A stretch of 64,000 nt of DNA from Escherichia phage SP15: sequence record AP019559, one strand, 5' to 3'. The translations under genes and the position numbers were made by a program. Of this stretch, positions 1 through 38,685 are shown one piece after another; the first letter of the stretch is position 1, and each line of letters begins with the position of its first letter. Under the pieces are notes generated by a model. The model saw only the letters and a list, made by a program, of their open reading frames with translations, made no database searches and was not told the DNA's origin.

Positions 1-64
1 AGGAATCGAACCTACCTCTTTCTAGCTTATGAGACTAGCGATCTCTACCAGAGATCTAACCCGC
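1..64 (-). tRNA. partial tRNA, anticodon CAU (Met or Ile-lysidine type); 3' acceptor strand cut by window edge
   Basis: Reverse complement gives GCGGGUU acceptor 5' strand, anticodon stem CUAGU/GCUAG with loop CUCAUAA, T-loop UUCGAUU; truncated at position 1. Confidence 0.5.
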
Positions 65-71
65 AATTGTT

Positions 72-147
72 TGGTCAGTGCGGCAGGACTCGAACCTGCG
101 ACCCGAAGCATCCAAGGCTCCCACGCTACCAACTGCGCTACGCACTG
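72..147 (-). tRNA. tRNA-Pro (anticodon UGG)
   Basis: 7-bp acceptor CAGUGCG/CGCACUG, D-stem GCGC/GCGU, anticodon stem GGAGC/GCUUC, loop CUUGGAU, T-arm GCAGG-UUCGAGU-CCUGC, encoded CCA. Confidence 0.7.
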
Positions 148-156
148 TTAATTCTT

Positions 157-354
157 TTATTGTGGGGGGATATTAATAATTCGTCCATCTACACAATAAA
201 CGGTACTAGGGATTGTACTGTATATGTAGAAATTCTTTATATTACTCTCTCCGCCACAGAAATTTTTAGCAAATTCATACTCTTTATTAATGGTTGAGTC
301 AAGTTTAAAACAACCAGTAAGTAGGAATACAGATAGCAATAAAACTTTCTTCAT
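157..354 (-). CDS. small putative lipoprotein (signal peptide with lipobox LLTGC)
   Basis: 65-aa ORF, N-terminal MKKVLLLSVFLLTGC, 3 further Cys in mature part; upstream TATAAT and AGAGAAGGAAA RBS on minus strand. Confidence 0.5.
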   Translation of the reverse strand: MKKVLLLSVFLLTGCFKLDSTINKEYEFAKNFCGGESNIKNFYIYSTIPSTVYCVDGRIINIPPQ

Positions 355-564
355 TTTGCTTTCCTTCTCTTCACTTTATAAAATATATTATACAGAGAAT
401 TAAGTAAAATAGCAAATGAATTTTTAATAAATTTACTTATTGTGTAGGCCACCTGGAGGCTATGAACCCCACGGCTGACAAAGAAGTTTGCGAGACTTCT
501 CTTAAAAGCCAGAATAGACCCGCCGATCTATCGGAACCTACATAATAAGTAAACTTTATAGTGT

Positions 565-685
565 CATTCTAGACAGGACTCGAACCTGTTATCACTTGTG
601 CGGACTTACGAGAACCATTCTTTCACTCGAATCGAACGAGCTTCTGCCCTAGCCAAGCTGGTTTCCCCATCAACCACGCTAGAAT
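565..685 (-). ncRNA. atypical tRNA-like RNA, about 121 nt, with two T-arm-like hairpins
   Basis: Perfect 7-bp terminal helix AUUCUAG/CUAGAAU, 3' T-arm ACAGG-UUCGAGU-CCUGU, internal hairpin GCUCG-UUCGAUU-CGAGU; too long for a canonical tRNA, no clean anticodon arm, no encoded CCA. Confidence 0.35.
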
Positions 686-807
686 GTTTGATTGTTTTCA
701 GTGCAAGAGTCCGAGTCTTGGACACGACCGCTTCGCAAGTACATAGGCAGCTTATCATGAGTCAGCACTTCCGAATTGCTAGCCCCGTGTTCTGCACTGA
801 AATTTTA

Positions 808-1155
808 TTAGTTTAACCGTAAAGTATTATCTACTTCACCATTAATTGTTCGGCATTCCTCTGGGATTGCTGGTGTAGCCTTGTATTCCCACCACTCAGC
901 ACCATCATATTCCCCACGTTCTAGCCAAGTTCCATCGGCAAACCATACATTACCATAAAGTAATTGTCCACCGTATCCAGAATCATATTCAAAGTCTAGG
1001 TTATTAAGAAACCCCTCAATGTCTTCTTCTGTATAACCTAAAGGTAATACCCAGACTTTTTTGTCCCCATAATACCCAAATTCTATTTTAATACACTTAA
1101 CTTTAGAATTGGTATTTTTTAAGGCGAGTAACAGCTCTTCTTTAGCATTACGCAT
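808..1155 (-). CDS. hypothetical protein
   Basis: 115-aa ORF between tRNA genes. Confidence 0.5.
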   Translation of the reverse strand: MRNAKEELLLALKNTNSKVKCIKIEFGYYGDKKVWVLPLGYTEEDIEGFLNNLDFEYDSGYGGQLLYGNVWFADGTWLERGEYDGAEWWEYKATPAIPEECRTINGEVDNTLRLN

Positions 1156-1180
1156 AGTATATTCTCATACTGAATTAAGT

Positions 1181-1257
1181 TGGCGCGACCGATGGGATTT
1201 GAACCCACATTCTCTCCCGTGACAGGGGAGTACCATTACCAAGCCAGCCCCGGTCGC
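1181..1257 (-). tRNA. tRNA-Asp (anticodon GUC)
   Basis: Acceptor GCGACCG/CGGUCGC, anticodon stem CUCCC/GGGAG, loop CUGUCAC, T-loop UUCAAAU, encoded CCA. Confidence 0.7.
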
Positions 1258-1266
1258 ATAATTCAT

Positions 1267-1452
1267 TTACTCAGCTTTGAGTTTTTCAATAGCTGCATTA
1301 AGTTCTTTAAGAAACTCTTTTCGTACATTAAGACGATTGAGACTTACTAGTATATCGTGTTTAAGTTCTTCGATGTATTTCTTTTCAACTTCAATATTGT
1401 TGATAGTGCTATCACGATGAACTTCTAGCTGCGCAATTACATTCTTGGACAT
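1267..1452 (-). CDS. hypothetical protein (coiled-coil-like)
   Basis: 61-aa ORF with GAGGAAAC RBS. Confidence 0.4.
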   Translation of the reverse strand: MSKNVIAQLEVHRDSTINNIEVEKKYIEELKHDILVSLNRLNVRKEFLKELNAAIEKLKAE

Positions 1453-1554
1453 GCTTGTTTCCTCAGTTATTAATGAAAATGGTATCTGTGGCTGAATTCG
1501 ATGTCAGCAATGATAGCTGGTTGGCTACCGGTTTACTTAACTCTACACAGAATT

Positions 1555-1637
1555 TGGCGGGCCGTGTAGGATTCGAACCTACGTTGTCTTTCGACATGGA
1601 TTAACAGTCCACCGCCAAACCGCTTGGCTAACGACCC
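1555..1637 (-). tRNA. tRNA-Asn (anticodon GUU) with unusually long 13-nt variable region
   Basis: Acceptor GGGUCGU/ACGGCCC (one G-U), D-stem GCCA/UGGC, anticodon stem GUGGA/UCCAU, loop CUGUUAA, variable GUCGAAAGACAAC, T-arm GUAGG-UUCGAAU-CCUAC, CCA. Confidence 0.6.
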
Positions 1638-1789
1638 TAAATTTATATTGCTGACTAGGATTTTCACCTAGACGGAGTTAGCACCGTAGCGTGTAGCGGC
1701 ATACCTCTCCAAACCGTGCCTCATCTTTCAATTACGGAGACAGTGTTCCTACGCGTGCCTGAATTGATTCAACAATTCTTCCAGCAAAT

Positions 1790-1865
1790 TGGACGACCGC
1801 ATGAGATTTGAACTCACATAAAAAGGATTTGCAATCCTTCGCCTAAGCCCTTCAGCCAACGGTCG
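1790..1865 (-). tRNA. tRNA-Cys (anticodon GCA)
   Basis: Acceptor CGACCGU/GCGGUCG, anticodon stem AAGGA/UCCUU, loop UUGCAAA, T-arm GUGAG-UUCAAAU-CUCAU, CCA. Confidence 0.65.
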
Positions 1866-1934
1866 GTTTATCTTGTTCTGTCATGTTGCTTCTCCAGTTC
1901 AATTTATGTAATTATTATACAGAACTTTTGGAAA

Positions 1935-2207
1935 CTAAGCAACTACATTTTTTAAGAATTTGATGCCTTTCTTTTTCTTCTTATATTTCCACGTTAATGG
2001 ATTCTGTCGATTATGAACGCTTGAGATCTTTGTCTCGTCAAAGTTCTTCAATATCATGTAATCACAGGATAATTGTTCTAGTAGAATGTGATCACCGTCA
2101 AAAGCGTATACATAAGGCTGTTGACTAACACGATAATGATAGACTTTGTTAATTCTACGTTTCAGCGACTTATCAGCGCAGTAAATAAAGAAGTTTTCAG
2201 GATGCAT
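1935..2207 (-). CDS. hypothetical protein
   Basis: ORF track 1935..2222 begins at TTG; internal ATG at 2207 follows AAGGAG with 6-nt spacing. Confidence 0.45.
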   Translation of the reverse strand: MHPENFFIYCADKSLKRRINKVYHYRVSQQPYVYAFDGDHILLEQLSCDYMILKNFDETKISSVHNRQNPLTWKYKKKKKGIKFLKNVVA

Positions 2208-2224
2208 CAGCAGCTCCTTCAATT

Positions 2225-2299
2225 TGGTGCACCCTGTTCGTATCGAACGAACCTCTCAAGCTCTTCAGGCAAGCGCTAATCCATCTCAGCTAAAGGTGC
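2225..2299 (-). tRNA. tRNA-like element, possible pseudo-tRNA (anticodon arm does not fold)
   Basis: Good 7-bp acceptor GCACCUU/AGGGUGC, T-arm GUUCG-UUCGAUA-CGAAC and CCA, D-stem GCUG/UAGC, but no 5-bp anticodon stem found. Confidence 0.35.
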
Positions 2300-2305
2300 A
2301 AATTT

Positions 2306-2382
2306 TGGCAAACCTACTAGGACTCGAACCTAGACCGTACGGTTTTGGAGACCGACATGCTGTCCAGTAACACTCTAGGAAT
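2306..2382 (-). tRNA. tRNA-Trp candidate (anticodon CCA), acceptor stem with two U-U mismatches
   Basis: Anticodon stem UCGGU/ACCGU, loop CUCCAAA, T-arm CUAGG-UUCGAGU-CCUAG, CCA; acceptor AUUCCUA/UAGGUUU imperfect. Confidence 0.5.
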
Positions 2383-2390
2383 GCAGAAAT

Positions 2391-2467
2391 TGGCGTCCTG
2401 TGCGGGGATCGAACCCGCAAATCCTACCTTGAAAGGGTAGTGACTTTACCAGTTTGTCTAACAGGAC
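2391..2467 (-). tRNA. tRNA-Glu (anticodon UUC)
   Basis: Acceptor GUCCUGU/ACAGGAC, anticodon stem CUACC/GGUAG, loop CUUUCAA, T-arm GCGGG-UUCGAUC-CCCGC, CCA. Confidence 0.7.
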
Positions 2468-2474
2468 TTAAATT

Positions 2475-2565
2475 TGGTGTTGGATGATGGAGTCGAACCA
2501 CCCGAGACCCTTCCGAGTCGGCAGATTTACAGTCTGCTTCGCTACCTCTACGATACTAATCCAAC
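2475..2565 (-). tRNA. tRNA-Tyr (anticodon GUA), type II with long variable arm
   Basis: Acceptor GUUGGAU/AUCCAAC, anticodon stem GCAGA/UCUGC, loop CUGUAAA, long variable arm, T-arm GGUGG-UUCGACU-CCAUC, CCA. Confidence 0.7.
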
Positions 2566-2695
2566 ATATTTAGAAGTATTCAAAAATTCTCATTTAAACA
2601 CTTTTAAATATGTTTTCAAATTAGGTAACTATTATACCAAGTTTTAAGGCACTGAGCAAGTCAAATTTTAAAGAACTTGCTCAGTGCTATATTAG

Positions 2696-2971
2696 TTAGT
2701 CGAACTTAGGAGTGACAGTTAAGGAGAACGGAAGTTCGAAAACTTCTTCACCCTCATTACTAACGGTAACTACACGACCTTTAAGTTCAGACATTAAAAT
2801 ATCAATATCAGCTTTTGCATCTGGAGCCATACCAGCTTCAACACATTTAGCTTTAACTTCCGGCAGAAGTTCGACATCGTAGAAATAAAGCCATTCAATC
2901 TCACCTTCCCAGCCTTCCCAGGATTTACAGATTGCACTTTCAATACCAGTTGCTACAACACGATTTTGCAT
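2696..2971 (-). CDS. hypothetical protein
   Basis: 91-aa ORF, GGAG RBS. Confidence 0.5.
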   Translation of the reverse strand: MQNRVVATGIESAICKSWEGWEGEIEWLYFYDVELLPEVKAKCVEAGMAPDAKADIDILMSELKGRVVTVSNEGEEVFELPFSLTVTPKFD

Positions 2972-3061
2972 TCGTTAACTCCTTCATCAATTTATACAAC
3001 TATTATATCAGAAATTTAAAGCAAAAGGCAAGTACATTTTTAAAAATTCTGTTTGGAGGAG

Positions 3062-3268
3062 CTAAACTCCAGATTCTTCAGCTAAGTCTAGGCTAATAAG
3101 AGTTATAGCCATAATTGCTGCACCGTGTTCTTTTTCTCCGGTGTTTTTAGCAGAGTCTATAATAGTCTTAATCTGTTCGTAATAGCCTTTTACTTCTTGT
3201 TCAATACCTGCCTCGGCTATCATGCCTTTAGTCATGATTCGTTGCATAGTAATTTCACGGTTAGCCAT
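3062..3268 (-). CDS. hypothetical protein
   Basis: 68-aa ORF, GGAGA RBS, start overlaps stop of upstream small ORF (TAATG-type coupling). Confidence 0.45.
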   Translation of the reverse strand: MANREITMQRIMTKGMIAEAGIEQEVKGYYEQIKTIIDSAKNTGEKEHGAAIMAITLISLDLAEESGV

Positions 3269-3428
3269 GATGTTTCTCCAGCTTCATTTTTAATAGTTTA
3301 CAAATGAAATCAACGTCTTCATCTGTACCTAGATCTCTATCTTCAAGAGTTGCCTTGAAGTTTTTAGTCAATTCCATGAGGATAACTTCTCTAGAACGAC
3401 GTGTTGGCGGAGGTGGATGTCTATACAT
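3261..3428 (-). CDS. small hypothetical protein (55 aa, Pro-rich N-terminus)
   Basis: Not in ORF track (below 60 aa); AAGGAA RBS 5 nt before ATG; translationally coupled to 3062..3268. Confidence 0.3.
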   Translation of the reverse strand: MYRHPPPPTRRSREVILMELTKNFKATLEDRDLGTDEDVDFICKLLKMKLEKHHG

Positions 3429-3443
3429 CTTATTTCCTTAGTT

Positions 3444-3520
3444 TGGTAGGGGTGGTGGGATTCGAACCCACAAAACCTGAATTTTAAGTCCAGTACCTAT
3501 GCCAATTCGATTACACCCCC
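3444..3520 (-). tRNA. tRNA with anticodon UAA (Leu-type anticodon but short variable loop)
   Basis: Acceptor GGGGGUG/CACCCCU, anticodon stem CUGGA/UUCAG, loop CUUAAAA, T-arm GUGGG-UUCGAAU-CCCAC, CCA; D-stem weak. Confidence 0.55.
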
Positions 3521-3527
3521 GTGTAGT

Positions 3528-3716
3528 TTAGTCAATTACTTTTGAGGCTTCAAGGTAGTCGATATAGTGTATGTTTTCTACCGTAATCATATAATCTGTC
3601 ACTTTATCCATAGCTTGGGCTTCAGAGGTAGCTCTGGCTAACCTATATCCTTTTTTATATTCATCCGGGTATTCTCTATCTTGGATAAACACAACATAAA
3701 CTATATATAGATCCAT
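3528..3716 (-). CDS. hypothetical protein
   Basis: 62-aa ORF. Confidence 0.4.
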   Translation of the reverse strand: MDLYIVYVVFIQDREYPDEYKKGYRLARATSEAQAMDKVTDYMITVENIHYIDYLEASKVID

Positions 3717-3725
3717 TTGTGACCT

Positions 3726-3803
3726 CTATTTAATTTGGTGGCTCCCCGAGGATTCGAACCTACGTACCTTCCGGTTATGAGCCGGGTGCTCATACCATAT
3801 GAG
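3726..3803 (-). tRNA. tRNA with anticodon CAU (Met/Ile type), weak T-stem
   Basis: Acceptor GGUUCUC/GGGAGCC, D-arm GCUC-AUAUGGUAU-GAGC, anticodon loop CUCAUAA, T-loop UUCGAAU but T-stem only 3 clean bp, CCA. Confidence 0.5.
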
Positions 3804-3809
3804 CTTGAG

Positions 3810-3898
3810 AACCAGAATTTGGCGGAAGAAGCGGGAATCGAACCCACAAGGCTATATTTCAAACCGACAGATTAGCAATCTGCTGCAATACCGTTATG
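3810..3898 (-). tRNA. tRNA-Ser (anticodon GCU), type II
   Basis: Acceptor GGAAGAA/UUCUUCC, anticodon stem GCAGA/UCUGU, loop UUGCUAA, long variable arm, T-loop UUCGAUU, CCA. Confidence 0.7.
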
Positions 3899-3929
3899 CT
3901 ATTCTTCCGAATTTATAAGATATATTATA

Positions 3930-4448
3930 TTAGAAATTTAGCTTCATAGCAAGAAAATTTTTCAAGTTTTCGGTAGACATCTCATCCACATCTACGGGAG
4001 AAACAAAGCCGTTTAATTTTCTAGCAAATTTTTCACCCGCAGGATCATTATCTCCGACAGCTACCAATTTAAAAGGTAGTAATTTCAGTTGCTTTAATAA
4101 CGCTTTTCCTGGAGAAGAACCCAACATTGCTAGGGCTGGATAACCAGCATTATGTAACGCAACTGCCTTAAATACAGATTCAGCAATCAATACTACTTTT
4201 TCATCTCCATTGAGAGTTTCTAGTCCCCATACACACTGGGTAGTAGAATAAGTAAAGTATTTAGCTTCAAAGGGGCACTTACCATGACCTTTTGGAGCAG
4301 AAGGATTATAAGTTTGATAGCCCCTCAACATCCCAGAGAAGTCATACAACGGGACTGTTAGCCATCCTTCCGGACTTAACCAGCAATGATATTTATCTGT
4401 ATCAAATCCTCTAGATAAGAGGTGCTGTGTTAGCTCATCAACATTCAT
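3930..4448 (-). CDS. stand-alone Toprim-domain protein (DnaG-like catalytic core)
   Basis: Motifs VVLIAESVFKAVALHNAGYPALAMLG and VAVGDNDPAGEKFARKL resemble the DnaG Toprim E...DxD core; start moved to ATG at 4448 (AGAGGA RBS), track extension reads through the promoter. Confidence 0.5.
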   Translation of the reverse strand: MNVDELTQHLLSRGFDTDKYHCWLSPEGWLTVPLYDFSGMLRGYQTYNPSAPKGHGKCPFEAKYFTYSTTQCVWGLETLNGDEKVVLIAESVFKAVALHNAGYPALAMLGSSPGKALLKQLKLLPFKLVAVGDNDPAGEKFARKLNGFVSPVDVDEMSTENLKNFLAMKLNF

Positions 4449-6459: not shown

Positions 6460-7407
6460 TTATTTATTACGCATATCCATGATCATTTGACCATCGTAGC
6501 CAGTACCTACCACAGTCTGTGGTACACCACCTTGATATTTCTGAGCACGAATCATTTCGACTTCCAGTTGTTTCCAACGAATCATCTCAGGAGTAATGGT
6601 ACGTTGCAGTGCGGCGTTAGCTTCAGCTTCTTTCTTAGCTGCGTACAGTTTAGCATCTGCGTCACGTTCATTAGCGATAGCTTGGTTGTTGCGAGCTTCA
6701 CGATCTGCTTCTGCTTGTTTAACTTTTTGCTGTGCTTCCTGTTCAACACGAGCTAATTCAGCTTTAGCAGCATTAACCTGTTCTTCACGAACTTTGGTAT
6801 TCTGTACCTGTTCCATGATTACCGGTGGCAAAGTAATATCCTGAAGGAATACCTGCTTAACTGTGTAACCATATGGGCGTGCATACTCTTCAACTTCCTG
6901 TTGAATTGCAGTTTGCAATTGAGCCTGAATTTTAGCATCAAACAAATCTTGTGCTTTAGGTACAGACTTACCAAACTCACGAATAGTAGACAGTAATTTT
7001 TCAGTTACATATTTGTCTAACGCTTGATCCTGAGTACCTGCGTTAATACGGTTAATTGGTGCCTTAGAACCATCAAACTGCAACATAACAGTCAGGTCAA
7101 CAGTGGATTTAAACTTATCCTGGCTAGGAACCTGAAGTTTATCTAATTTTACAGCAATATCTTTTGTACTAAAAGTGTCGAAAGATGCAAATGGGTTTAC
7201 AAGATGGAAACCTGGTAATACTGGGTTAGGATCTACTTTACCCAGAAATGTTTGGGTTTTAACCGTACCATCAGAAACAATAGTATATGAATTAAAGGCT
7301 AGAATCAAGCCTGCTAAACCAACTACAGCACCAATACCCCAACGTTTAATAGTACGAATTACTTTCTGCTCAGAAGTCAGTTCTTTCATATTTTTAGTAT
7401 TAAACAT
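6460..7407 (-). CDS. SPFH/band-7 (prohibitin/HflC-like) membrane protein
   Basis: N-terminal TM helix IGAVVGLAGLILAF, then band-7-like domain and Ala/Glu/Gln-rich coiled-coil typical of the SPFH family. Confidence 0.6.
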   Translation of the reverse strand: MFNTKNMKELTSEQKVIRTIKRWGIGAVVGLAGLILAFNSYTIVSDGTVKTQTFLGKVDPNPVLPGFHLVNPFASFDTFSTKDIAVKLDKLQVPSQDKFKSTVDLTVMLQFDGSKAPINRINAGTQDQALDKYVTEKLLSTIREFGKSVPKAQDLFDAKIQAQLQTAIQQEVEEYARPYGYTVKQVFLQDITLPPVIMEQVQNTKVREEQVNAAKAELARVEQEAQQKVKQAEADREARNNQAIANERDADAKLYAAKKEAEANAALQRTITPEMIRWKQLEVEMIRAQKYQGGVPQTVVGTGYDGQMIMDMRNK

Positions 7408-7440
7408 ATATTTCCTTTGTTTTAGTTACAGTTAATAAAA

Positions 7441-7515
7441 TTGGCCGAGGTGACAGGATTCGAACCTGCATAAAGGAATTTAGAAGACTCCTGCCTCTCC
7501 CTTAGACTACACCCC
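7441..7515 (-). tRNA. tRNA-Arg (anticodon UCU)
   Basis: Acceptor CGGGGUG/CACCUCG, anticodon stem GGAGU/AUUCC, loop CUUCUAA, T-arm GCAGG-UUCGAAU-CCUGU, CCA. Confidence 0.7.
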
Positions 7516-8029
7516 GTTTAAATATTTTTAAGAACTCTCGTAAAAACTCTTAAAAATACAGACGATACCGGGAGAGTCATAAGTCTCACTCATTAAGTAT
7601 TTCAAGACAAAATACAGTAACGTCTATTATTTTCCAGTTTAAGTCAGGGTGACTTAGTGGTTAGGTCCTGCGGTATATTGAGGACTCGGTTAGGCTTGGG
7701 GTCATGACTTCCCGCCTTTTGCTGCTACTCAACAGGAGTTATCGCGAATTACCTGTGCTATTGTGCACCATTAGTGACATCTCTCATGTCAGCATTTCCC
7801 ACTTTGTGGATAGCTTGAAAAACTACTCCGATATGGAGAAAAAACTTCACTATCCTAGAATACCTTCTAAAGTTCTTCTTTAGCCTGGACATAGTTAAAT
7901 CGTAATAAAACTATTCAGCAGACTGGTTGGTTAGCCTGGAACCAACTACCGCGTGGTTTAGGCAGTGCGCAACTAACCTCGGAAGCTTTTACGTTAAAAG
8001 CATCAGTTATCCAGTTCTTACCGACCGTA

Positions 8030-8100
8030 GGATTCGAACCTATATCTTCCACCAGTTACGGCTTGATAATACCAATTATACTAGGACGGCAGTGTTACTA
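8030..8100 (-). ncRNA. tRNA-like small RNA (acceptor and T-arm present, D and anticodon arms not canonical)
   Basis: Terminal helix GCCGUCC/GGUCGGU (one mismatch), T-arm AUAGG-UUCGAAU-CCUAC, no encoded CCA, about 71 nt. Confidence 0.35.
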
Positions 8101-8365
8101 CATAAGTGATTTCCACACCCCACTATTTATAAATTAGAGAAGAGTTTAGGGGAGAGGTTTCAGACGCCTCATTTTACACGTTCTAGCCACTAACCGGGAT
8201 TGCCGCCCCCTGTGTACTAGTTTTACAACTAACCTACCGACTCTATTCAACGAATCTTAGTGCTCGACGCATCTTACATTAAGACAAGTTCAGCGTAATC
8301 GGCTCGCTGTTCTCTAATTTATGAATATATTATACAGAATTTATAAGCATTTAGCAAATAAATTT

Positions 8366-8809
8366 TTAATTAAATTCACCAGCAATCTGAGCAGCAGTAC
8401 CACCATCATAACGCCCAGGAAATTCTTCCTTAATCGCTTTCATCAGCATACCTTTTGTAATTCCAGGGTTTAGCTTAACTAATTCTGCAAAGTATTTACG
8501 AATCTCAGTATCAGATAACTGAGGGGGCAGATACTCCTGCAACCACTTATTTAGAATGTACTCATACTGAGCGGACTGCAAGCTATAACTATCAAGATCT
8601 TGACCATGAAGTTTAGCTTTCATCTGGTTAATGCTTTTTAGTTGAGCTTTGAGATAAGACACAAATTGTTCAGAAGTGATGAAATCTTTATTAATACGCT
8701 GAAGATCCCCGATTATGGTCTGATAGCTTTTAGCGACTTCTTTATCAGAACCATTAAACTTAGAATCCTGCAAAGCTCTACGCAAAACATCTAAAATATT
8801 CTCTTCCAT
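8366..8809 (-). CDS. GatB/YqeY-domain protein
   Basis: C-terminal ITKGMLMKAIKEEFPGRYDGGTAAQIAGEF matches the YqeY family signature. Confidence 0.6.
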   Translation of the reverse strand: MEENILDVLRRALQDSKFNGSDKEVAKSYQTIIGDLQRINKDFITSEQFVSYLKAQLKSINQMKAKLHGQDLDSYSLQSAQYEYILNKWLQEYLPPQLSDTEIRKYFAELVKLNPGITKGMLMKAIKEEFPGRYDGGTAAQIAGEFN

Positions 8810-25922: not shown

Positions 25923-26061
25923 TTTTTATTGGTTGACCTCTATAATCCGGGCTATTAGTGCTCGGATTATTGCCTAATCTTTCCAGCTAATTGACAGCAT
26001 GAATAAATTGTCATTGACAAATTGAATAGATTATGTAATAATATGTGTATTGGAGGTAAAG

Positions 26062-26514
26062 ATGTCGCTCACACAACAAGAACTTTTAGATAATTTCCGA
26101 TATGAAGATGGAAAATTATTTAGAACCACAGGAAGAAATGCAGGCAAGGAATGTTGTGTTTCAACGGGAAATGGGTATTATCGTATTTCTCTAGGTAGTA
26201 AAACTATGCTCCGACACAGAGCCATCTTCTTAATGCATCATGGTTATCTCCCTGATTTAGTAGATCATGAGAATACTATAAAAGGTGATGATCGTATTGA
26301 AAATCTTAGAGAGCAGACAGTATCCGGTAATCTAAGAAATATCAAATATAAGAAAGGAATGCATGTTTACCCTTCTGGTAGTAAGAACTGGCAAGTAGTA
26401 TTTACTATTAACCGTAAACGTATAGTTAAAGGAACATATGACAACTATGAGGTTGCATGTTCTATGGCCAAGATGTTTAGAGGTCAATTATACGGTAGGG
26501 AATCAATCCAGTAA
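26062..26514 (+). CDS. HNH homing endonuclease (HNH_3 plus AP2-like domain)
   Basis: HRAIFLMHHGYLPDLVDHENTIKGDDRIENLRE; GGAGG RBS before ATG 26062. Confidence 0.65.
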   Translation: MSLTQQELLDNFRYEDGKLFRTTGRNAGKECCVSTGNGYYRISLGSKTMLRHRAIFLMHHGYLPDLVDHENTIKGDDRIENLREQTVSGNLRNIKYKKGMHVYPSGSKNWQVVFTINRKRIVKGTYDNYEVACSMAKMFRGQLYGRESIQ

Positions 26515-27049
26515 AATTTCATTTGCAAGGGAGTATTATTTTATAGTATAATATTCCCATAAATGAGAGATATTAGTAAAAATTGATTTTGCTAATTTTT
26601 CTTGTTTACAATCCGCGATACGGAACAGTTAGGCTGCCCCATTAAGGGTTGTTTTAACTGTTACGTGTTAGTTTTTAAGCAAATAATTAATAGAATACTT
26701 AGCGATCTGCGTCCCGTAGGAACCCTGGTAAGGCCTCGAAGCAACCTAGATAGAGGTGGTTGTGAAGTGAGACGGGAGGAGTGAAAAACTCCGAGACGTG
26801 ATTCTGTAAGTTATATTGCATCTAGTATGAGCTAGTATATGAAGCATTAGGTGAGCAAATCTGGCTTAGCGGCCATCCTCAAGGATTTGTGCGGTATAGC
26901 AAAGCAGCAGCGCAGCGTGAAAGTGGAAGTTGCCACCCCACTTCAGTATTTGCGATTAATTTGTTGAGAAATTGACAGTAACAGTTGTTCTATTCTTTCT
27001 GAATAGTCCTAAAGAAAACTTATTTCATTTCCAACACAGGAGTATTGTT

Positions 27050-29839
27050 GTGTTTTCAATCCTACAAGGTCATGCAGGATTTCATCGCGATTTAGCCACA
27101 GGCAATTGGCGAGAAGTTAAGGCAGAAGATTATCTTTTTGCTAAAAGATTTTCCTCAAAGCATCCCGAAGGTAAACCAGCTTCAATGCCCTTCAAGTTTG
27201 ATGTAATTGATGAAGTTGATCCTCAAACCCTAGTAGAAATGCTTCCTCTTATGAGACGTTTAACGTCTGACCCTCATATCGTTGCGGTACGAGGTCGATG
27301 TCTTGCACCTAAAAATAATGTGCGACGTAAGAAGGGCAACTTTAATGTATCTAATCCAAGTCATATAATCGCAATGGATGTGGATGGTATTGTAGATACA
27401 GGAGGTTGTAACAAGTTTGATCTTGTTGGCATGGCGCGTCATATTATTAGGATGTTGAATAGTATTAGTGAGGATATGTTTCCTCTTGATGCAGGGTTTA
27501 TTGCTCATGCATCATCTTCGGCTGGCCTAAAACCAGGTATCCGAATGCACTTAATACTAGAATCTAATGTTAAAGTTACACAGGGTCAGATCAAGTTCTT
27601 ATTTACATCTATCAACGAAAGTAGTAGACAAAAGTATGGCTTTGATATTGCCGACTTAGCTTATTACTCTTCCGTACAGCTCCACTATTTTGCAGATCCT
27701 TTATTTACTGATGGTATAGTTGATCCGTTTAAAGCGGAGGGTGCTTCACGTCTGGTATTTGTTAAAGGCTCAAAAGTAAATTTACCTAATAATCTAGTTG
27801 ACTATGAAACAACTAGAGGAGAGTTTAAAGAGGAATTCTACTCTTTACTCGATCAAATTAAAGGTAAAAAAGCCGCCTCCGATAAAGTAGAGGAAACTAT
27901 CAGCGAACTAGAAGAAGCTGAGGATGGAGTGTATCTACGTATTATTCCTAAACTCTATCACAGGGCTTTAGAGGATGGTGTTGATTTTGCATGGCTAGAA
28001 AAAGAAATCCGCCCAGCCTTATCAGAGTATATTGCAACTAAAGATAATAGTCGTAATATTCAAGATTATTTTAACAACGGTAGAAAACAGGCTCTGAAAG
28101 CGTTTGTTAATAATTCTAAACGTGATATACCGGATGTTTTAAAAGGTATTCCACTTAAAAAGCTAGAAACTAACTCTCTAGAGACTGATAACTTCTTGAA
28201 ATTAAATACTGTACCACCAGAAGGTTATATGACTTTTGTAAAAGCAAGTCTAGGTACAGGTAAAACTACGGCGGTTGTGCGTTGGTTAGATTCAGGAGTT
28301 ATTAAGGGTAATTTCTTAGCAATTACCAATACTCGAGCACTGGTATCTTCAAATGCTAAGAAATTTAGTGCAGGACAATATGATAAGTCTGTAGATATGC
28401 TTAATTTTAAGCGTGGCGCTATTGACCGTATGTCCACAACTATACATTCTTTGCATAAGTTCAAGAGTTTTATTGGTCAAATCGATGCAATCTTTATCGA
28501 TGAATGTGACGCTGTAATGAATGACCTATTATTCGCCCCGGTTGTTAAACAACGTCGTGAATGTATTCAGGTTCTTCGGGATATTCTTGCAACTGCAAAA
28601 ATCATTATATTATCTGATGGTGATATTAGTGCTGAAACAATTGAAGCATATGGTTCTTTGATTGAGTTTGATAAACCGGTTGCATTTTATAATCATCACC
28701 GTAAGATGCTGTCAAAAGCTCATGCTTATGAGTTCCCTGATGAATCTAGTATTTGGGTTGCACTTCAGACCTCTCTAGAGATGGGTGAGAAATCTATTCT
28801 GGTATCTGATTGTGGGCCGGATGAGCTGAATGAGAAAGGTATGGCACTGCGTCGTAATACGGGTGCGTTAGTTAAGGAAATCCATTCAAACTCTACCTCA
28901 GATGTGGATATTAGACGTATTCTGGATTACACAACTAATGAACTAATTGATCAACAAATTGATTGTTTATTATGTAGTCCATCCGTAACGAGTGGTGTTG
29001 ACTTTAACTATTTTGATAACGTATTTGTTATTACTAGAACTAGTAATCAAGCGCCAAACATGCGTTTCCAAGCAATCAGGCGCGACCGTGGTGCTCAGAA
29101 TATCTATTATTTTATTGATAAATCCACTAGTGGATTCTCCGCAGGTTCTGAACAATATAATATTGATGAGGGTTGGCTGGAGTTAGCACAGCAATTATAC
29201 GCACGTCGCAGGGAGCTGGAATCTAGGAACTATACTAGTACTTTACGTTATTACTTACTTGATCAGGGTGCAACTATTGATATTTTCAGTGAAAGCTGGG
29301 GAACTATTGAAGGTGCTGGTAAAGAGTATACAGAAGAGCGAATCAAAGCTATTCTGCACTCAACTCCTGATTATTGTGCTCCACGTCATGCGGATGCGTA
29401 TGAAGCTAAACTACTTCTTGTTCGCTATTATCATCTGGAGTCTATTAAAGATGTAACCGTTGAGCATGTTGAACAATATATCAAAGATAAGCCGAATGAT
29501 CGAGCTGCATTCTTCCATAAGATGCATGAGATGTTCTGGGAAGATATTAAGAAGTGTTCAAATGTCACTATCAAACCTTTCATAGAAGCTCTGAAAGGTA
29601 AGAAGAAAGATTTCTTCCTTAAAACAGGTCAGAGTGCTAACCCAAAATATGCTAGAATGTATCTTGGTATGATGGGTATTGGTAAAGATATGAACACGGA
29701 GAATATCGTAGACTGGTACAGAACCTATTGTAAAATCGAGTGTATGCCAATTCCTTTCAAATTCATGACAGAGGAAGAACGTCAGATGCACGAGGAAGCA
29801 ATGTCAGAGCTAGGTGCTAGAAATGACAGTGAAGAATAA
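27050..29839 (+). CDS. large P-loop NTPase, putative replication initiation/origin-binding helicase-like protein
   Basis: Walker A SLGTGKTTAV and Walker B IFIDECDAV; likely GTG start 27050 after AGGAG (track start 26972 is TTG inside a TTGACA box). Confidence 0.6.
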   Translation: MFSILQGHAGFHRDLATGNWREVKAEDYLFAKRFSSKHPEGKPASMPFKFDVIDEVDPQTLVEMLPLMRRLTSDPHIVAVRGRCLAPKNNVRRKKGNFNVSNPSHIIAMDVDGIVDTGGCNKFDLVGMARHIIRMLNSISEDMFPLDAGFIAHASSSAGLKPGIRMHLILESNVKVTQGQIKFLFTSINESSRQKYGFDIADLAYYSSVQLHYFADPLFTDGIVDPFKAEGASRLVFVKGSKVNLPNNLVDYETTRGEFKEEFYSLLDQIKGKKAASDKVEETISELEEAEDGVYLRIIPKLYHRALEDGVDFAWLEKEIRPALSEYIATKDNSRNIQDYFNNGRKQALKAFVNNSKRDIPDVLKGIPLKKLETNSLETDNFLKLNTVPPEGYMTFVKASLGTGKTTAVVRWLDSGVIKGNFLAITNTRALVSSNAKKFSAGQYDKSVDMLNFKRGAIDRMSTTIHSLHKFKSFIGQIDAIFIDECDAVMNDLLFAPVVKQRRECIQVLRDILATAKIIILSDGDISAETIEAYGSLIEFDKPVAFYNHHRKMLSKAHAYEFPDESSIWVALQTSLEMGEKSILVSDCGPDELNEKGMALRRNTGALVKEIHSNSTSDVDIRRILDYTTNELIDQQIDCLLCSPSVTSGVDFNYFDNVFVITRTSNQAPNMRFQAIRRDRGAQNIYYFIDKSTSGFSAGSEQYNIDEGWLELAQQLYARRRELESRNYTSTLRYYLLDQGATIDIFSESWGTIEGAGKEYTEERIKAILHSTPDYCAPRHADAYEAKLLLVRYYHLESIKDVTVEHVEQYIKDKPNDRAAFFHKMHEMFWEDIKKCSNVTIKPFIEALKGKKKDFFLKTGQSANPKYARMYLGMMGIGKDMNTENIVDWYRTYCKIECMPIPFKFMTEEERQMHEEAMSELGARNDSEE

Positions 29840-30056
29840 AAAATGGGAAACAAGGAAGTTTCCAGTAAAAGAACGCAAAGTTCCTGTTTATGATACTTCG
29901 GAGAAGCTATGTAGGGTGGTACCGCATAGATTAGCTGGTATCCCTAACATATCCGAGTGGTTACTTAAACAACGGAGGACTAACGTATCTCTTCGCGTAG
30001 GGTTTGAGTTAGATAAAGTATATGCTGAACTTTCTTCTTTGCTCAAAGAATCATAA
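29823..30056 (+). CDS. hypothetical protein
   Basis: 77 aa from ATG 29823; overlaps end of preceding gene. Confidence 0.4.
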   Translation: MTVKNKKWETRKFPVKERKVPVYDTSEKLCRVVPHRLAGIPNISEWLLKQRRTNVSLRVGFELDKVYAELSSLLKES

Positions 30057-30065
30057 AAAATTTAT

Positions 30066-30094
30066 TTGCTTTCAGGAAAAATTTTCTGTATAAT
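30066..30094 (+). promoter_or_regulatory. T5 P_N25-like early promoter
   Basis: AAATTTATTTGCTTTCAGGAAAATTTTTCTGTATAATAGATTCATAAATTTGAGAGAGGAG matches the P_N25 sequence as I recall it. Confidence 0.75.
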
Positions 30095-30125
30095 AGATTC
30101 ATAAATTTGAGAGAGGAGTTTAAAT

Positions 30126-30830
30126 ATGGCTGGTTCTCGCAGAAAGAAACATATCCATGAAATCCCGGATGAAGTCTTTAAAAAAGTTATAGAGCACCTG
30201 GAGAACGGTGGTACTAAGAAAGCAGCATGTGAAATGCTCGGCGTATCATCCAATCCAACTATGGAAAGGATGATAGAAGAGTGGCAAGACCGGCAGATCC
30301 AAGTTGCCGAGATGAAGAAAAAGAAACGCGGTACACTCATTGAAGGCATTGAGTTGGCCAACGTTATTGAACAGTATCTATCTGGTGATTCCTTTGAGGA
30401 GATTGCCGATCGTAATTATCGTTCTGTAGCAATGGTTAAATCTGTTCTGGAACGCTATGGTGCTCTGCTTCGTTTGAACGATATTGTAGATCCATTGAAC
30501 CCACCAATTATTCCTGATGATGCTGTAGCAGAAGAATTTGAGGTAGGTGAGCTTGTTTGGGTTCCTGGATACCAGTGTATCGGTGAAATCAAAAAAGCAA
30601 TGGATAACCCTGTCGGTTGTTACCGTGTATGGCTTCTATCAGAAGGCAAACAACAGAACGTTCATTATATGAATTACGAGCTGGCTTCTGTTAAACATCT
30701 GGAAAAGTTAGGGGTTGATGTAAAGTCTCTGGGGTACAAATGGTCCCGGGAAGAAGTTATCACACTGATTAACGAAGCTGTTAAGGCTGCCCTGAAACTT
30801 GATAAAGAAAAAGGTAAACGTCGTGAGTAG
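30126..30830 (+). CDS. putative DNA-binding (HTH) early protein downstream of P_N25-like promoter
   Basis: 234 aa; strong promoter and GAGAGGAG RBS upstream. Confidence 0.6.
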   Translation: MAGSRRKKHIHEIPDEVFKKVIEHLENGGTKKAACEMLGVSSNPTMERMIEEWQDRQIQVAEMKKKKRGTLIEGIELANVIEQYLSGDSFEEIADRNYRSVAMVKSVLERYGALLRLNDIVDPLNPPIIPDDAVAEEFEVGELVWVPGYQCIGEIKKAMDNPVGCYRVWLLSEGKQQNVHYMNYELASVKHLEKLGVDVKSLGYKWSREEVITLINEAVKAALKLDKEKGKRRE

Positions 30831-31074
30831 ACTAACTGATTTACTTAAAGATGGGGAAGTAAAAACGCTATATCGTAGAAGCTGGGATAACGATAATAAC
30901 GGCTTAGTGTTACTAACTTTAGATGCTGACTCGGATGTAGCTACTCAGCATACCTGGGTAGCCGGTAACTATCCATATAGCGAGGTTGTTTCATTAACAG
31001 TATGCGAAGCTATTGCGGACGATTGGGAGGTTGCCAGCATTGATGATATGCTCGCTGTTGGCCTGGTGGAGTAA
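30799..31074 (+). CDS. hypothetical protein
   Basis: Start uncertain; GTG at 30823 follows an AAGGTA SD-like sequence. Confidence 0.4.
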   Translation: MIKKKVNVVSRLTDLLKDGEVKTLYRRSWDNDNNGLVLLTLDADSDVATQHTWVAGNYPYSEVVSLTVCEAIADDWEVASIDDMLAVGLVE

Positions 31075-31091
31075 CTACTTAAAAATTTCAG

Positions 31092-31120
31092 TTGCTTAAT
31101 CCTATAATTCTTGATATAAT
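31092..31120 (+). promoter_or_regulatory. T5-type early promoter
   Basis: TTGCTT-17 nt-TATAAT. Confidence 0.55.
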
Positions 31121-31177
31121 ATTCTCATAGTTTGAAAGAACTATTCTGTTTAATTCTTAATTAAGGAAATATAAAAT

Positions 31178-31588
31178 ATGACTACTCCAACTCAGTGGAC
31201 TGATGAACTGTTTGAAAAAATGTCTTCCGAATATGTTGCTCGTATGGAGCAATTCCCAGAGGATGAACGTCCGGGTGTTAGCATGGAAATTGTTAGCGAA
31301 ATTGCCCAGGAAAATGGTGTAACTCCGAACGGTTTTCGTATGAAGCTGACTAAAGCAGGTTTGTATATCAAGAAAGCTGCTGGTTCTACTTCGAAATCTA
31401 GCGCATCTACTGGAGAAAAAGCTTCCGGTGGTTCTCGTACCTCCAAAGCTCAAGCCCATGCCGACCTTCGTTCAGCTTTCTCTGATGCTGGCTTAGCACC
31501 AGATTTTCTGGATGATGCAATTATCGACAAACTGACCGGTAAAGCGGCTGCTCATCTGGCAGAAGCAATCCGAGCTATCACTAAGTAA
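31178..31588 (+). CDS. hypothetical protein
   Basis: 136-aa ORF, AAGGAAA RBS. Confidence 0.55.
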   Translation: MTTPTQWTDELFEKMSSEYVARMEQFPEDERPGVSMEIVSEIAQENGVTPNGFRMKLTKAGLYIKKAAGSTSKSSASTGEKASGGSRTSKAQAHADLRSAFSDAGLAPDFLDDAIIDKLTGKAAAHLAEAIRAITK

Positions 31589-31625
31589 TATTTAGATAAA
31601 TCCACCAACAAAAGGAACTATAGCT

Positions 31626-31922
31626 ATGACTAAAGCTGAAATTATTGCACAGTGCGAAAAATTTGGTGAGTTTTATCTTCATTACGAGAAACTTCGTCAG
31701 AAAGGAACCACGTACCTTCAGGGTACAATGGAATTTGATCCAGCCCAAGATAAATATCTGGCTGAGCGTATTAAACGTGAACGTATTCGTAAAGCGAAAG
31801 ATGATGAAATCCTTGTCTTCTCTCGTACTAATGATAGCTTCCGTTTTATTCCTGTCGAGAAAGTTCGTCGTGTGACTAGCCTCCAATCAGAGTTAGATCG
31901 TGCTTCTCCAGTAGGCCGATAA
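31626..31922 (+). CDS. hypothetical protein
   Basis: 98-aa ORF followed by hairpin terminator. Confidence 0.55.
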   Translation: MTKAEIIAQCEKFGEFYLHYEKLRQKGTTYLQGTMEFDPAQDKYLAERIKRERIRKAKDDEILVFSRTNDSFRFIPVEKVRRVTSLQSELDRASPVGR

Positions 31923-31924
31923 GA

Positions 31925-31952
31925 AAACAATTAGCCCCTATATGGGGCTTTT
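31925..31952 (+). terminator. rho-independent terminator
   Basis: AGCCCCTATATGGGGCT hairpin then TTTTTGTG. Confidence 0.6.
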
Positions 31953-31972
31953 TGTGTATTTGGGATATGTAA

Positions 31973-32281
31973 ATGAGCGAACAGGTAAATCAAAACTATG
32001 AAGGACACGTTGATGACCAGTCCATCATACTTTGGGAGAAGGAGGGGGAACAAGTAAGATTAACAGTATCTGAATTTCGTGGGAATCTATACATGGGTAT
32101 TCGTTACTGGCTTCTTGATATTAATGATGAATGGTTTCCAACGAAATCTGGCTTCTCTTTTCCTTACACCCTAGAAACAACATCACAGCTTTTCTATGCG
32201 TTTACACAGATTCTTAGCGAATCTGAGGTTTTACATGAAGTACAGAAACGAGCTGAAGAACTCAAAGCCAAGAATGCCTAG
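31973..32281 (+). CDS. PC4-like ssDNA-binding protein
   Basis: VRLTVSEFRGNLYMGIRYW...PTKSGFSF resembles the PC4/YdbC fold signature. Confidence 0.45.
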   Translation: MSEQVNQNYEGHVDDQSIILWEKEGEQVRLTVSEFRGNLYMGIRYWLLDINDEWFPTKSGFSFPYTLETTSQLFYAFTQILSESEVLHEVQKRAEELKAKNA

Positions 32282-32308
32282 TTCTTGGCTTTTTCTTTAT
32301 AAATGTAT

Positions 32309-32337
32309 TTGCTTTCAACTCAGTTTTGTTATATAAT
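32309..32337 (+). promoter_or_regulatory. T5-type early promoter
   Basis: TTGCTT-17 nt-TATAAT, conserved leader. Confidence 0.55.
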
Positions 32338-32367
32338 ATTTATATAAATTAATGAGAGGATTGCAAA

Positions 32368-32640
32368 GTGAAAAAGATAAATATAAGTACACTTAAACCT
32401 TTTCCATATATCGGACAGCCTCTCATCCTCATGTGGGAGGAAAAGATTAATGGGGAAAAGTATACTAAAACTAGAATTGGGTATAAACTGATTTCACTTT
32501 ATTACGAAAAAGAAGTATTAATAGCTGAAATATACTCTCCATTATCGGATAGGCTAGTAAAAACTACATATTTGCATCTTTGCAAAAATTATACGTGGCA
32601 CGGATCTACCAGACAACCCACGTACTATGAGGCAGAATAA
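32368..32640 (+). CDS. hypothetical protein
   Basis: 90-aa ORF, GTG start. Confidence 0.45.
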   Translation: MKKINISTLKPFPYIGQPLILMWEEKINGEKYTKTRIGYKLISLYYEKEVLIAEIYSPLSDRLVKTTYLHLCKNYTWHGSTRQPTYYEAE

Positions 32641-33612
32641 ATGACTAATGTAAAAGAATTTATTAAACGCTGTCAAGAAGCATATTATCGGGGTATGTCT
32701 TTAATCTCTGATGAGGAGTATGATTGCCTGGTAAAACGCTTCCCGTTAGAAGAAGAGATCGGGCCTAAGGGTGATATTCCACATCTGTACCGTATGTATT
32801 CTTTACAGAAAGTTTATTATAATCGTGGGGATAAACCACCATTTAATCCTTTAGGTCAGGTAGAAACTGATAAGTTAGATGGTTGTGCAATTTCTCTGCT
32901 ATATATTAACGGCGAATTTGTTCAAGCACTAACTCGTGGTAATGGTATTCTAGGGAATGATGTCACAAGCAACGTAAGACTGCTGAATATCCCTAAAAAG
33001 ATTTCCCAAAAAGTACCAACTCAAATCACTGGTGAAGTTCTAATTACAAAAGAAGTAGAAAATAAACGTAACTTTGCCTCTGGTGCTATTAACCTCAAAG
33101 ATAGTGATGATTTCGTACAACGTATCGGGGAAGGTGGTTTAATCTTCGTTGCATACGGTATCCAGTGTTCTGCCGAATCTGTAGGTATTACAGAAGCATA
33201 CTTAAAAGATATGCTTTGGCTAGAGAATGAGAACTTCTTAACAGTTGTTAATGTGCGTTCCTTCTTTAAATGGATTCCGACGGACGGTAAAGTTGTTCGT
33301 ATTAATGACAACAACAAATTCTTCCGAGAAGGCTGGACTAATAAATTCCCTCGCGGGGCGTTCGCTATTAAAGAGGATGAAGAAGGCGAGATTACAACTC
33401 TTACTAAAGTTGAATGGCAGGTAGGGGCTTCTGGTAAAGTAACTCCAGTTGGTTATTTCGAACCGGTAATTATTGATGATGCTACAATTGTTAAAGCGAC
33501 TCTTAATAACGTTGATTATATTAACTCTCTCGATCTAGAGATCGGTTGCCAGATTCGAGTGATTCGTGCTGGTGGTGTAATCCCGTGCATAGTAGAGCGA
33601 GTATACGATTAA
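32641..33612 (+). CDS. NAD-dependent DNA ligase, adenylation/OB-fold part (split ligase subunit A)
   Basis: Adenylation motif TDKLDG (KxDG), RGDG-like and OB-fold blocks. Confidence 0.75.
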   Translation: MTNVKEFIKRCQEAYYRGMSLISDEEYDCLVKRFPLEEEIGPKGDIPHLYRMYSLQKVYYNRGDKPPFNPLGQVETDKLDGCAISLLYINGEFVQALTRGNGILGNDVTSNVRLLNIPKKISQKVPTQITGEVLITKEVENKRNFASGAINLKDSDDFVQRIGEGGLIFVAYGIQCSAESVGITEAYLKDMLWLENENFLTVVNVRSFFKWIPTDGKVVRINDNNKFFREGWTNKFPRGAFAIKEDEEGEITTLTKVEWQVGASGKVTPVGYFEPVIIDDATIVKATLNNVDYINSLDLEIGCQIRVIRAGGVIPCIVERVYD

Positions 33613-33755
33613 CTAACAACCCTTTGCTACCCATCTACCATATCGGAATTATAAAGTGGTTATTGACATTTTCGCCGCTTAGGTATATACTATTATCATT
33701 CAGTTGAGGGATAGAAAGTTATGGCGAGGGTAAGCAAAGTTAGTTAAAATTGTAG

Positions 33756-33784
33756 TTGCTAAATGCTTAAATACTTGCTATAAT
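33756..33784 (+). promoter_or_regulatory. T5-type early promoter for ligase subunit B
   Basis: TTGCTA-17 nt-TATAAT. Confidence 0.55.
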
Positions 33785-33814
33785 ATTTATATAAATTGAT
33801 AAGGAAGAAATTTG

Positions 33815-35354: not shown

Positions 35355-35372
35355 TCTGGTAAATTAAACCTA

Positions 35373-38682: not shown

Positions 38683-38685
38683 TAT

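Follow-up and report, generated by a model that had tools for sequence, protein, structure and literature searches.

The rnaX locus of Escherichia phage SP15: comparative evidence for a multi-domain structured RNA with an embedded tRNA-like element

Stable RNA species, rnaC and rnaD, are present in the tRNA cluster of phage T4, and eight stable RNAs of unknown function are listed for the tRNA region of phage T5: RNAX and, besides it, RNAIII, RNAI, RNA1, RNA2H, RNAIV, RNA2 and RNA3, of which RNA1, RNA2 and RNA3 are annotated as 'tRNA-like' (T5 26000-42200). The larger GOLLD RNAs combine a variable 5' part with a conserved 3' part, sometimes carry tRNAs in a linker and form kissing-loop assemblies (PMC12286853). 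The bacterial Y RNAs YrlA and Yrn1 contain a tRNA-like module with T and D arms inside a larger non-coding RNA (PMC4201824). In YrlA this tRNA-like domain is permuted (T arm, closed 'acceptor' stem-loop, D arm) and sits on the Ro60-binding stem, the 'anticodon' loop of Yrn1 has 6 nucleotides (nt), and YrlA of M. smegmatis is cut by RNase P and given CCA (PMC4201824). Here we describe a locus at positions 7517-8315 in a 64,000-nt stretch of Escherichia phage SP15 (record AP019559; this whole stretch is called the window). With high confidence it can be identified as an ortholog of T5 rnaX that encodes a structured non-coding RNA, RNAX.

The homologous interval of T5 is annotated as the misc_RNA rnaX (T5s08), 719 nt long, in NC_005859/AY543070 and in the partial record AY734508. 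Its GenBank note reads 'stable RNA with unknown functions' and it is positioned between promoter P16-17 and tRNA-Arg; the feature is also annotated in DT57C and DT571/2. The SP15 locus has the same arrangement: RNAX is flanked by a P16-17-type promoter, itself just downstream of a YqeY-like gene, and by tRNA-Arg(UCU), all on one strand. T5 matches 81% of the query in three pieces at 93% identity, in agreement with a pairwise alignment, and the records that annotate rnaX are 93-99% identical at the DNA level and syntenic. T5 is matched by model R1 with 138 bits and by R2 with 149.5 bits. At 7400-8450 the window shares 99% identity with Escherichia phage FFH1, NBEco001 and others, and 441 phage records match this stretch. 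The features on which the argument depends are as follows.

8329-8357, minus strand: sigma-70-type promoter TTGCTA-17-TATAAT, homolog of the T5 early promoter P16-17 (promoter scan, 10 of 12 matches)
7517-8315, minus strand: RNAX ortholog, non-coding RNA of ~799 nt; 5' end by alignment to the T5 rnaX start, 3' end abutting tRNA-Arg as in the T5 annotation
8019-8090, minus strand: tRNA-like element with acceptor, D and T arms and a short hairpin as anticodon arm (8050-8063, loop GUAACU); Rfam tRNA match of 28.3 bits, cloverleaf covariation
7981-8114, minus strand: central three-way junction, in which helix P0 and hairpin Hp enclose the tRNA-like element; alignment, covariation
8102-8114, minus strand: 5' strand of P0, GGAA-AUCA-C-UUAU, pairing with AUAA-C-UGAU (8002-8010) and UUCC (7981-7984)
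7985-8001, minus strand: hairpin Hp, GCUUUUA-ACG-UAAAAGC, which covaries
7656-7803, minus strand: domain CB2, a five-way junction of P1 (AGUGG/CCACU), then P2, P3a/b, P4 and P5; covariation
7702-7709, minus strand: invariant P4 hairpin loop AGUCAUGA, which holds the 6-nt palindrome UCAUGA; the enclosing stems covary
7442-7516, minus strand: tRNA-Arg(UCU) with encoded CCA, directly 3' of RNAX; ARAGORN, Rfam

The promoter site is unchanged in the alignment with T5 (where it is named 'promoter P16-17'), bastian, SP76 and Trudi, and equivalent promoters are present in AAS21 and PSTCR5. Compensatory changes join positions that are 120-150 nt apart (P0, P1), and the RNAX helices hold many G-U pairs on the minus-strand reading that become A-C mismatches on the other strand. 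The conserved promoter, the long-range compensatory changes and the strand-specific G-U pairs together speak for an RNA on the minus strand.

Acceptor, D and T arms are all present in the tRNA-like element, and its elbow nucleotides are conserved, as is a U5-U mismatch. The acceptor stem is 7 base pairs (bp) long, the T arm is GGUUCGAAUCC, and the D arm, which shows compensatory changes in relatives, consists of 3-4 bp and the canonical AAUUGGUA loop. Neither the T loop GGUUCGA nor the GG of the D loop varies across the aligned orthologs. In 19 distinct sequences the cloverleaf is 86% paired, compared to 26-46% with slid partners, and 11 of its 20 pairs have changed on both sides, which was reached by 0 of 500 shuffles, a type of statistic that overstates significance for phylogenetically related sequences such as these. 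The Rfam tRNA score of 28.3 bits stays below the gathering score of 29 (RF00005), and the orthologs reach 29-38 bits (29.3-38.3). The lower score of the window copy is due to a private G-to-A change, by which the first T-stem pair has become A-C. Model R1 scores the orthologs of the element at 71-138 bits; they were found in Tequintavirus, Epseptimavirus, Sugarlandvirus (Klebsiella phages), Hongcheonvirus (DU_PP_V, My1) and Pantoea phage AAS21.

Where a tRNA has its anticodon arm, 18 nt are left unaligned by the Rfam tRNA model. There is no 5-bp stem with a 7-nt loop and a kept anticodon: the window copy has a stem of 3-4 bp and a 6-nt loop, and the hairpin varies by lineage, from 3-4 bp with the 6-nt loop GUAACU, UUCACC or GUAAAU to a GAGA tetraloop (AAS21), GCGAA (phiR2-01) or a long GCUA-capped stem (Roth50) in relatives. 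This variability accounts for the contradictory identities that ARAGORN gives to the orthologs (Ser-act, SeC-tca, Ser-cga, Leu-tag, undetermined). The element is a pseudo-tRNA in AY587007 and a tRNA-OTHER, tRNA-Ser or tRNA-Sec in other records. CCA is not encoded; the 3' tail AAGA and the 5' leader AACACU (8091-8096) are both conserved, the leader being invariant. ARAGORN detected no transfer-messenger RNA (tmRNA) in the window. Because a decoding anticodon loop is lacking, the element is, as judged from sequence comparison, a tRNA mimic and not a tRNA gene. A sequence-only reading of this DNA had placed an element with an acceptor helix and a T-arm, but without canonical D or anticodon arms, at 8030-8100. 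The element and the two helices are real, but its position is 8019-8090 on the minus strand, and while the anticodon arm is indeed non-canonical, a D arm is present.

The flanks of the tRNA-like element pair with each other in P0; across 16 sequences this helix is 99.2% paired, and 4 of its 8 pairs have seen both partners change. Examples are AUCA/UGAU, which becomes CUGA/UCGG and CUCG/UGAG, and a G-C to C-G swap in P0a that was read from the alignment. The junction is closed by a further helix of 3-4 bp, GGAA/UUCC (CGA/UCG in other lineages), read from alignment A7. The minimum free energy fold of the sense strand yields the junction helices P0 and Hp. The Providencia phage PSTCR5, PR1 and Proteus phage PM135 retain the junction together with the AACAC/AAGA internal loop, but have a short hairpin in place of the cloverleaf. 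It is possible that GGUGU pairs with the AACACU leader; both are invariant.

Covariation likewise defines CB2, where P1 becomes UGUGG/CCACA in AAS21 and CACGG/CCGUG in DU_PP_V. In 11 sequences the domain is 92% paired and 10 of 34 pairs have changed on both sides (0 of 500 shuffles). A covariance model built from these 11 sequences recovers bobsandoy, the Klebsiella phages and phiR2-01. With distant members added, 21 of 33 pairs are changed on both sides, in an alignment (A6) that was fitted to the covariance model. Constrained folds give the same CB2 architecture in 16 lineages. The domain is single-copy per genome, and model searches of the T5 tRNA region found neither a second CB2 copy nor a second strong copy of the tRNA-like module. 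The 8-nt P4 loop, two purines followed by UCAUGA, is invariant in all lineages that have CB2; this palindromic loop is the one feature that hints at a possible homo-oligomeric assembly of RNAX. The motif AGTCATGACC occurs downstream of the tRNA-like element in all Markadamsvirinae, Sugarlandvirus and Hongcheonvirus loci with enough downstream sequence and was not found in Priunavirus PSTCR5. Pairing of the P4 loop with the P2 apex (CAUGA) was considered and rejected, since the complement is missing from T5 P2.

The remaining modules of RNAX are more variable or were delimited by eye.

8147-8310, minus strand: 5' domain D1, 163 nt; missing in T5, present in Epseptimavirus, Klebsiella phages, AAS21 and PSTCR5
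8291-8309, minus strand: invariant D1 hairpin CAGCG-AGCCGAUUA-CGCUG, the loop of which may pair with AGUCGGU (8236-8242)
7804-7980, minus strand: variable linker with lineage-specific hairpins, shared by Tequintavirus and bastian, replaced in SP76 and Trudi
7643-7653, minus strand: small 3' hairpin GUCACCCUGAC, read from alignments without formal count
~7559-7625, minus strand: 3' domain closed by AGACG/CGUCU, read from alignments without formal count
7527-7554, minus strand: AU-rich hairpin UUUAAGAG...UUCUUAAA before tRNA-Arg, read from alignments; the 3' modules together span 7527-7653

The pseudoknot between the D1 loop and AGUCGGU is 96-98% paired, with covariation that is not significant (one compensatory change, equalled by 101 of 500 shuffles), and is retained as a candidate possibility. 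Linker length varies, the CB2 loop motif lying 283-495 nt downstream of the tRNA-like element. In other lineages the 3' closing helix reads CUGACGG/CCGUCGG, CUGACUG/CAGUCGG or CUGACAG/CUGUCGG (by eye, uncounted). Homing-endonuclease open reading frames (ORFs) are inserted in variable RNAX parts of several relatives. ORF insertions in variable parts (L005 276-785 and 1373-1870; L011 1803-2285; L013 200-709) or between RNAX and tRNA-Arg (L008) leave the RNA domains intact; one inserted ORF is annotated as HNH endonuclease (JLBYU43) and the others are unannotated.

The sequence-only reading had described the DNA between a tRNA-Arg at 7441-7515 and the YqeY gene as ORF-poor and as a candidate for undescribed non-coding RNAs. 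The scarcity of ORFs holds, as both strands carry only unconserved ORFs of at most 60 amino acids (aa), and the tRNA is there, shifted by one base to 7442-7516 (minus strand) according to ARAGORN. That the stretch encodes a non-coding RNA is supported, but it was not undescribed, as the T5 reference and AY734508 annotate exactly this interval as rnaX/RNAX, and it does not hold a set of small RNAs: the comparison of relatives agrees with a single long RNA of several domains, one of them the embedded tRNA-like element. A lack of conservation in related phages, which was named as an argument against the idea, is contradicted by 536 matching phage records and by several helices with compensatory changes. 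For this locus the proposed Rfam search returned the borderline tRNA match only, and no family covers RNAX. Whereas the existence of RNAX was already known, its anatomy and the breadth of its conservation were apparently uncharacterised.

With respect to distribution, Rfam gave only tRNA matches and no GOLLD, ROOL, Y RNA, tmRNA or ribozyme in the window (E<=1 over 12 kilobases (kb), E<=10 over 901 nt) and in 10 related loci. Pattern scans of IMG/VR recovered only Demerecviridae genomes of ~100-123 kb. The pattern AGTCATGACC...TAACCR matched at least 120 loci, mostly by chance, and those screened with R1 held nothing beyond ordinary tRNAs; a stricter pattern of T arm, acceptor 3' strand and AAGA tail gave nothing beyond the 27 Demerecviridae loci already in the set. 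A metagenome scan with the conserved 5'-flank pattern found 42 loci compared to ~35 expected by chance (a rough estimate), 0 of which were confirmed by R1 or R2. With metagenome matches at chance level and none confirmed, a family outside Demerecviridae is unsupported. T5-like phages of Providencia and Proteus keep an unannotated non-coding locus of ~750 nt (L173 4228-4972; L219 601-1340; L218 570-1400). It has the same 5' hairpin, the AACAC junction and a separate T-arm-like hairpin, is without the full tRNA mimic or a detectable CB2, and its module order is apparently rearranged.

In 5' to 3' order, RNAX is a chain of structured domains that begins with an optional one, followed by the three-way junction with the tRNA-shaped module in its clamp, a variable linker, CB2 and 3' hairpins. 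The tRNA-shaped module keeps the 'top half' and elbow of a tRNA, i.e. the 7-bp acceptor stem, the T arm and the D loop with its GG. Release of the adjoining tRNA-Arg by RNase P would create the 3' end of RNAX. The mimic, too, may be cut by RNase P, in view of the U at -1, the coaxial stack of 7+5 bp and the intact elbow. RNAX could then act in trans by offering the tRNA top half and a kissing-capable loop to a partner that reads the tRNA shape and not the anticodon. Candidate partners are a processing or modification enzyme and a tRNA-directed host factor. This trans-acting mimic function is a tentative proposal, with the odds against it. For the explanation as a whole, in which an rnaX ortholog encoding a structured RNA is combined with a mimic role in trans, we estimate a probability of roughly 0.55.

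It is known that tRNA-Lys of the T5 tRNA region counters PARIS (PMC11464382) and that tRNA-Tyr and ORF75 of this region counter retron Eco7 (PMC11555353). An accessory trans-acting RNA is our best guess for RNAX because other genes of the region counter tRNA-directed immunity. The st0 deletion of T5, with coordinates 33667-41891 in AY734508, takes in rnaX (40848-41566), which indicates that RNAX is dispensable for growth in laboratory hosts. A further-reaching proposal, which we consider doubtful, is that RNAX is the founder of a class of phage RNAs, so far uncatalogued, that are large (0.7-1.2 kb), have several domains and are conserved across Demerecviridae. The anticodon-less mimic in its three-way junction, together with the five-way-junction domain and its invariant self-complementary loop, would act in trans. 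Its role would be that of a decoy or sponge for a host factor that reads tRNA shape, for instance a tRNase of an immune system or the sensor of such a tRNase, or else that of an RNA particle that assembles itself like GOLLD/ROOL.

Several observations, in addition to the caveats on the shuffle statistics and on alignment A6 given above, weigh against the proposed explanation. Folding energies are no better than those of shuffled sequences (z = -0.16 for whole RNAX, -1.1 for the junction and -0.3 for CB2), and the thermodynamic stability of RNAX is indistinguishable from that of the antisense strand. With such unremarkable z-scores the structural case is carried by covariation alone. CB2 was not detected in Priunavirus or Novosibvirus, and no single RNAX module is universal, since T5 is without D1 and Priunavirus and Novosibvirus are without the full tRNA mimic or a detectable CB2. 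Where mutants with deletions in the tRNA region were rescued with respect to the retron, the effect was assigned to tRNA-Tyr and ORF75 and not to RNAX (PMC11555353). The status of RNAX as a 'stable RNA' derives from a GenBank note; in the library searched, no paper joins 'RNAX', or T5 'stable RNA(s)', with bacteriophage T5, and a search for T5 transcriptome work gave nothing useful.

In view of the above, other explanations should be considered. RNAX could be a long cis-acting leader that drives, processes or stabilises the transcript of tRNA-Arg and the SPFH gene, the tRNA-like element being an extra RNase P/RNase E punctuation. Its location between a strong promoter and tRNA-Arg with no terminator detected between them, the features of the mimic that are used by RNase P, and the conserved AU-rich hairpin immediately before tRNA-Arg would be consistent with this. 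However, a length of ~800 nt, with a five-way junction that covaries and a loop that never changes, far exceeds what a leader needs, and the RNAX domains are kept although homing-endonuclease or other ORFs of 0.5-1.2 kb part RNAX from tRNA-Arg in S147, bobsandoy, phiR2-01, AAS21 and Klebsiella phages. As such separation occurs in many relatives, RNAX is not merely the leader of tRNA-Arg, and we regard this explanation as unlikely. By analogy to GOLLD and ROOL, RNAX might also be a self-assembling 'ornate' phage RNA, in which the P4 palindrome would mediate formation of a homodimer or oligomer and the tRNA module would reside in a linker. It is phage-encoded, 0.7-1.2 kb long and multi-domain, it lies beside a tRNA island, its 5' part varies while a 3' domain is conserved, and its invariant 8-nt loop carries the 6-nt palindrome UCAUGA after two purines. 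GOLLD and ROOL occur near tRNA islands and assemble by kissing loops, with tRNAs in some GOLLD linkers (PMC12286853). Yet no Rfam GOLLD/ROOL match appears even at E<=10, an invariant loop cannot show covariation for self-pairing, and the palindrome could equally be a protein site, which makes this role improbable as well.

Three more options are disfavoured. A tRNA pseudogene in decay, surrounded by junk spacer from an eroded tRNA cluster, would agree with the pseudo-tRNA flag in AY587007, with a window copy that scores just under the Rfam cut-off and in which one T-stem pair is broken, and with the annotation of T5 deletion mutants without the region. Such an origin is very unlikely in view of the compensatory changes that maintain the cloverleaf in several genera with a constant non-decoding architecture, and of flanks and CB2 that are conserved above the YqeY gene (protein 49%, RNAX DNA ~93%). 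The conservation could also belong to the DNA itself and not to an RNA, for instance to a replication origin, the target of a homing endonuclease or a palindrome bound by a protein: GTCATGAC is an 8-bp DNA palindrome and homing-endonuclease genes insert repeatedly hereabouts. This has a similarly small chance, as compensatory changes extend across 120-150 nt (P0, P1), G-U pairs exist on the minus-strand reading only, and a conserved promoter is directed into the region. Least credible is a coding role for the region, with one or more small proteins as in several GenBank records. ORFs of 34-60 aa do occur on both strands, none exceeding 60 aa at 7517-8365, and hypothetical proteins are annotated in Baret, TrudiGerster and Uniso31. 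However, starts, stops and frames of the short ORFs in RNAX differ in T5, bastian, SP76 and TrudiGerster, the window and T5 differ within them by indels of 1 nt and more, which shift frames, and substitutions track helix pairing and not codon position. The small ORFs were rejected as genes because their frames are unconserved in relatives. Hypothetical-protein coding sequences overlie RNAX in GenBank records (L001 1805-1984, plus strand, and 2247-2351, minus strand; L009 1277-1955, plus strand; L007 1093-1706, minus strand). The coding sequences annotated over RNAX, one of which is named 'putative tail protein', are unconserved as ORFs and probably annotation artefacts.

The locus belongs to T5-like phages, which are widely used as models and are therapy candidates, and in which the deletable tRNA region holds counter-defence functions. 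No non-coding element of that region is larger than RNAX, which by sequence identity is conserved above the neighbouring protein gene. A domain map with mimic, clamp helix, five-way junction and palindromic loop makes the purpose of the T5 stable RNAs directly testable and would permit correct annotation of several hundred phage genomes.

The window is from a T5-like phage (Tequintavirus) and the local genes run on the minus strand; those seen nearby encode a YqeY-like protein, an SPFH/band-7 protein and a cell-wall hydrolase. For a bacterial Y RNA of the YrlA type, the expected neighbour would be an rsr (Ro60) gene. The tRNA-Arg(tct) called by ARAGORN at 7442-7516 (minus strand) scores 49.3 bits with the Rfam tRNA model. 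The upstream neighbour of RNAX, the YqeY-like ORF at 8366-8809 (minus strand), encodes a protein just 49% identical to T5.081 of T5, while the adjoining RNAX DNA is ~93% identical to T5, which points to a mosaic (recombination) boundary at about the promoter. Elsewhere in the window, a 40.3-bit Rfam tRNA match at 3739-3813 (minus strand), uncalled by ARAGORN, adjoins tRNA-Ser(gct) in a position like that of T5 tRNA-Ile2(CAU), and a tRNA at 1-65 (minus strand; 28.9 bits) has its 3' end cut off by the window edge.

Compared to the systems introduced above, RNAX resembles GOLLD and ROOL as a large multi-domain phage RNA of unknown function beside tRNA islands, a likeness in kind and not homology: it has no detectable match to their Rfam models, and no relation between the domain architectures is visible. 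With the Y RNAs it shares the embedding of a tRNA-like module, and the loop of the window copy likewise has 6 nt. In contrast to YrlA, the arm order in RNAX is canonical and the open acceptor stem continues into P0; there is no Rfam Y-RNA match. The other T5 stable RNAs are also RNAs of unknown function among phage tRNA genes, some of them tRNA-like, but they measure 73-172 nt, whereas RNAX is multi-domain and 719-800 nt or more. Homologs of these seven RNAs are expected at 1-4000 of the window or just upstream. Acceptor, D and T arms and elbow nucleotides are those of a canonical tRNA (RF00005), and orthologs of the element pass the Rfam threshold. The element differs from a tRNA in that it has no 5-bp stem and 7-nt anticodon loop, no consistent anticodon and no encoded CCA (the tail is AAGA), and in that it is clamped by a helix between its own flanks; it differs from a tRNA pseudogene in being under structural selection. 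The closest counterpart is T5 rnaX. The window copy has an extra 163-nt 5' domain (8147-8310) and the private G-to-A change in the T stem, and it is without the 87-nt insertion that T5 has after CB2. This insertion (T5 locus ~7255-7345; window ~7640) is flanked by the direct repeat AGTCACCTTGAC(T/A)TAAACTGGAA. Both RNAs have the tRNA-like element and CB2, the same strand, the same place between P16-17 and tRNA-Arg, and 93% DNA identity in the shared parts.

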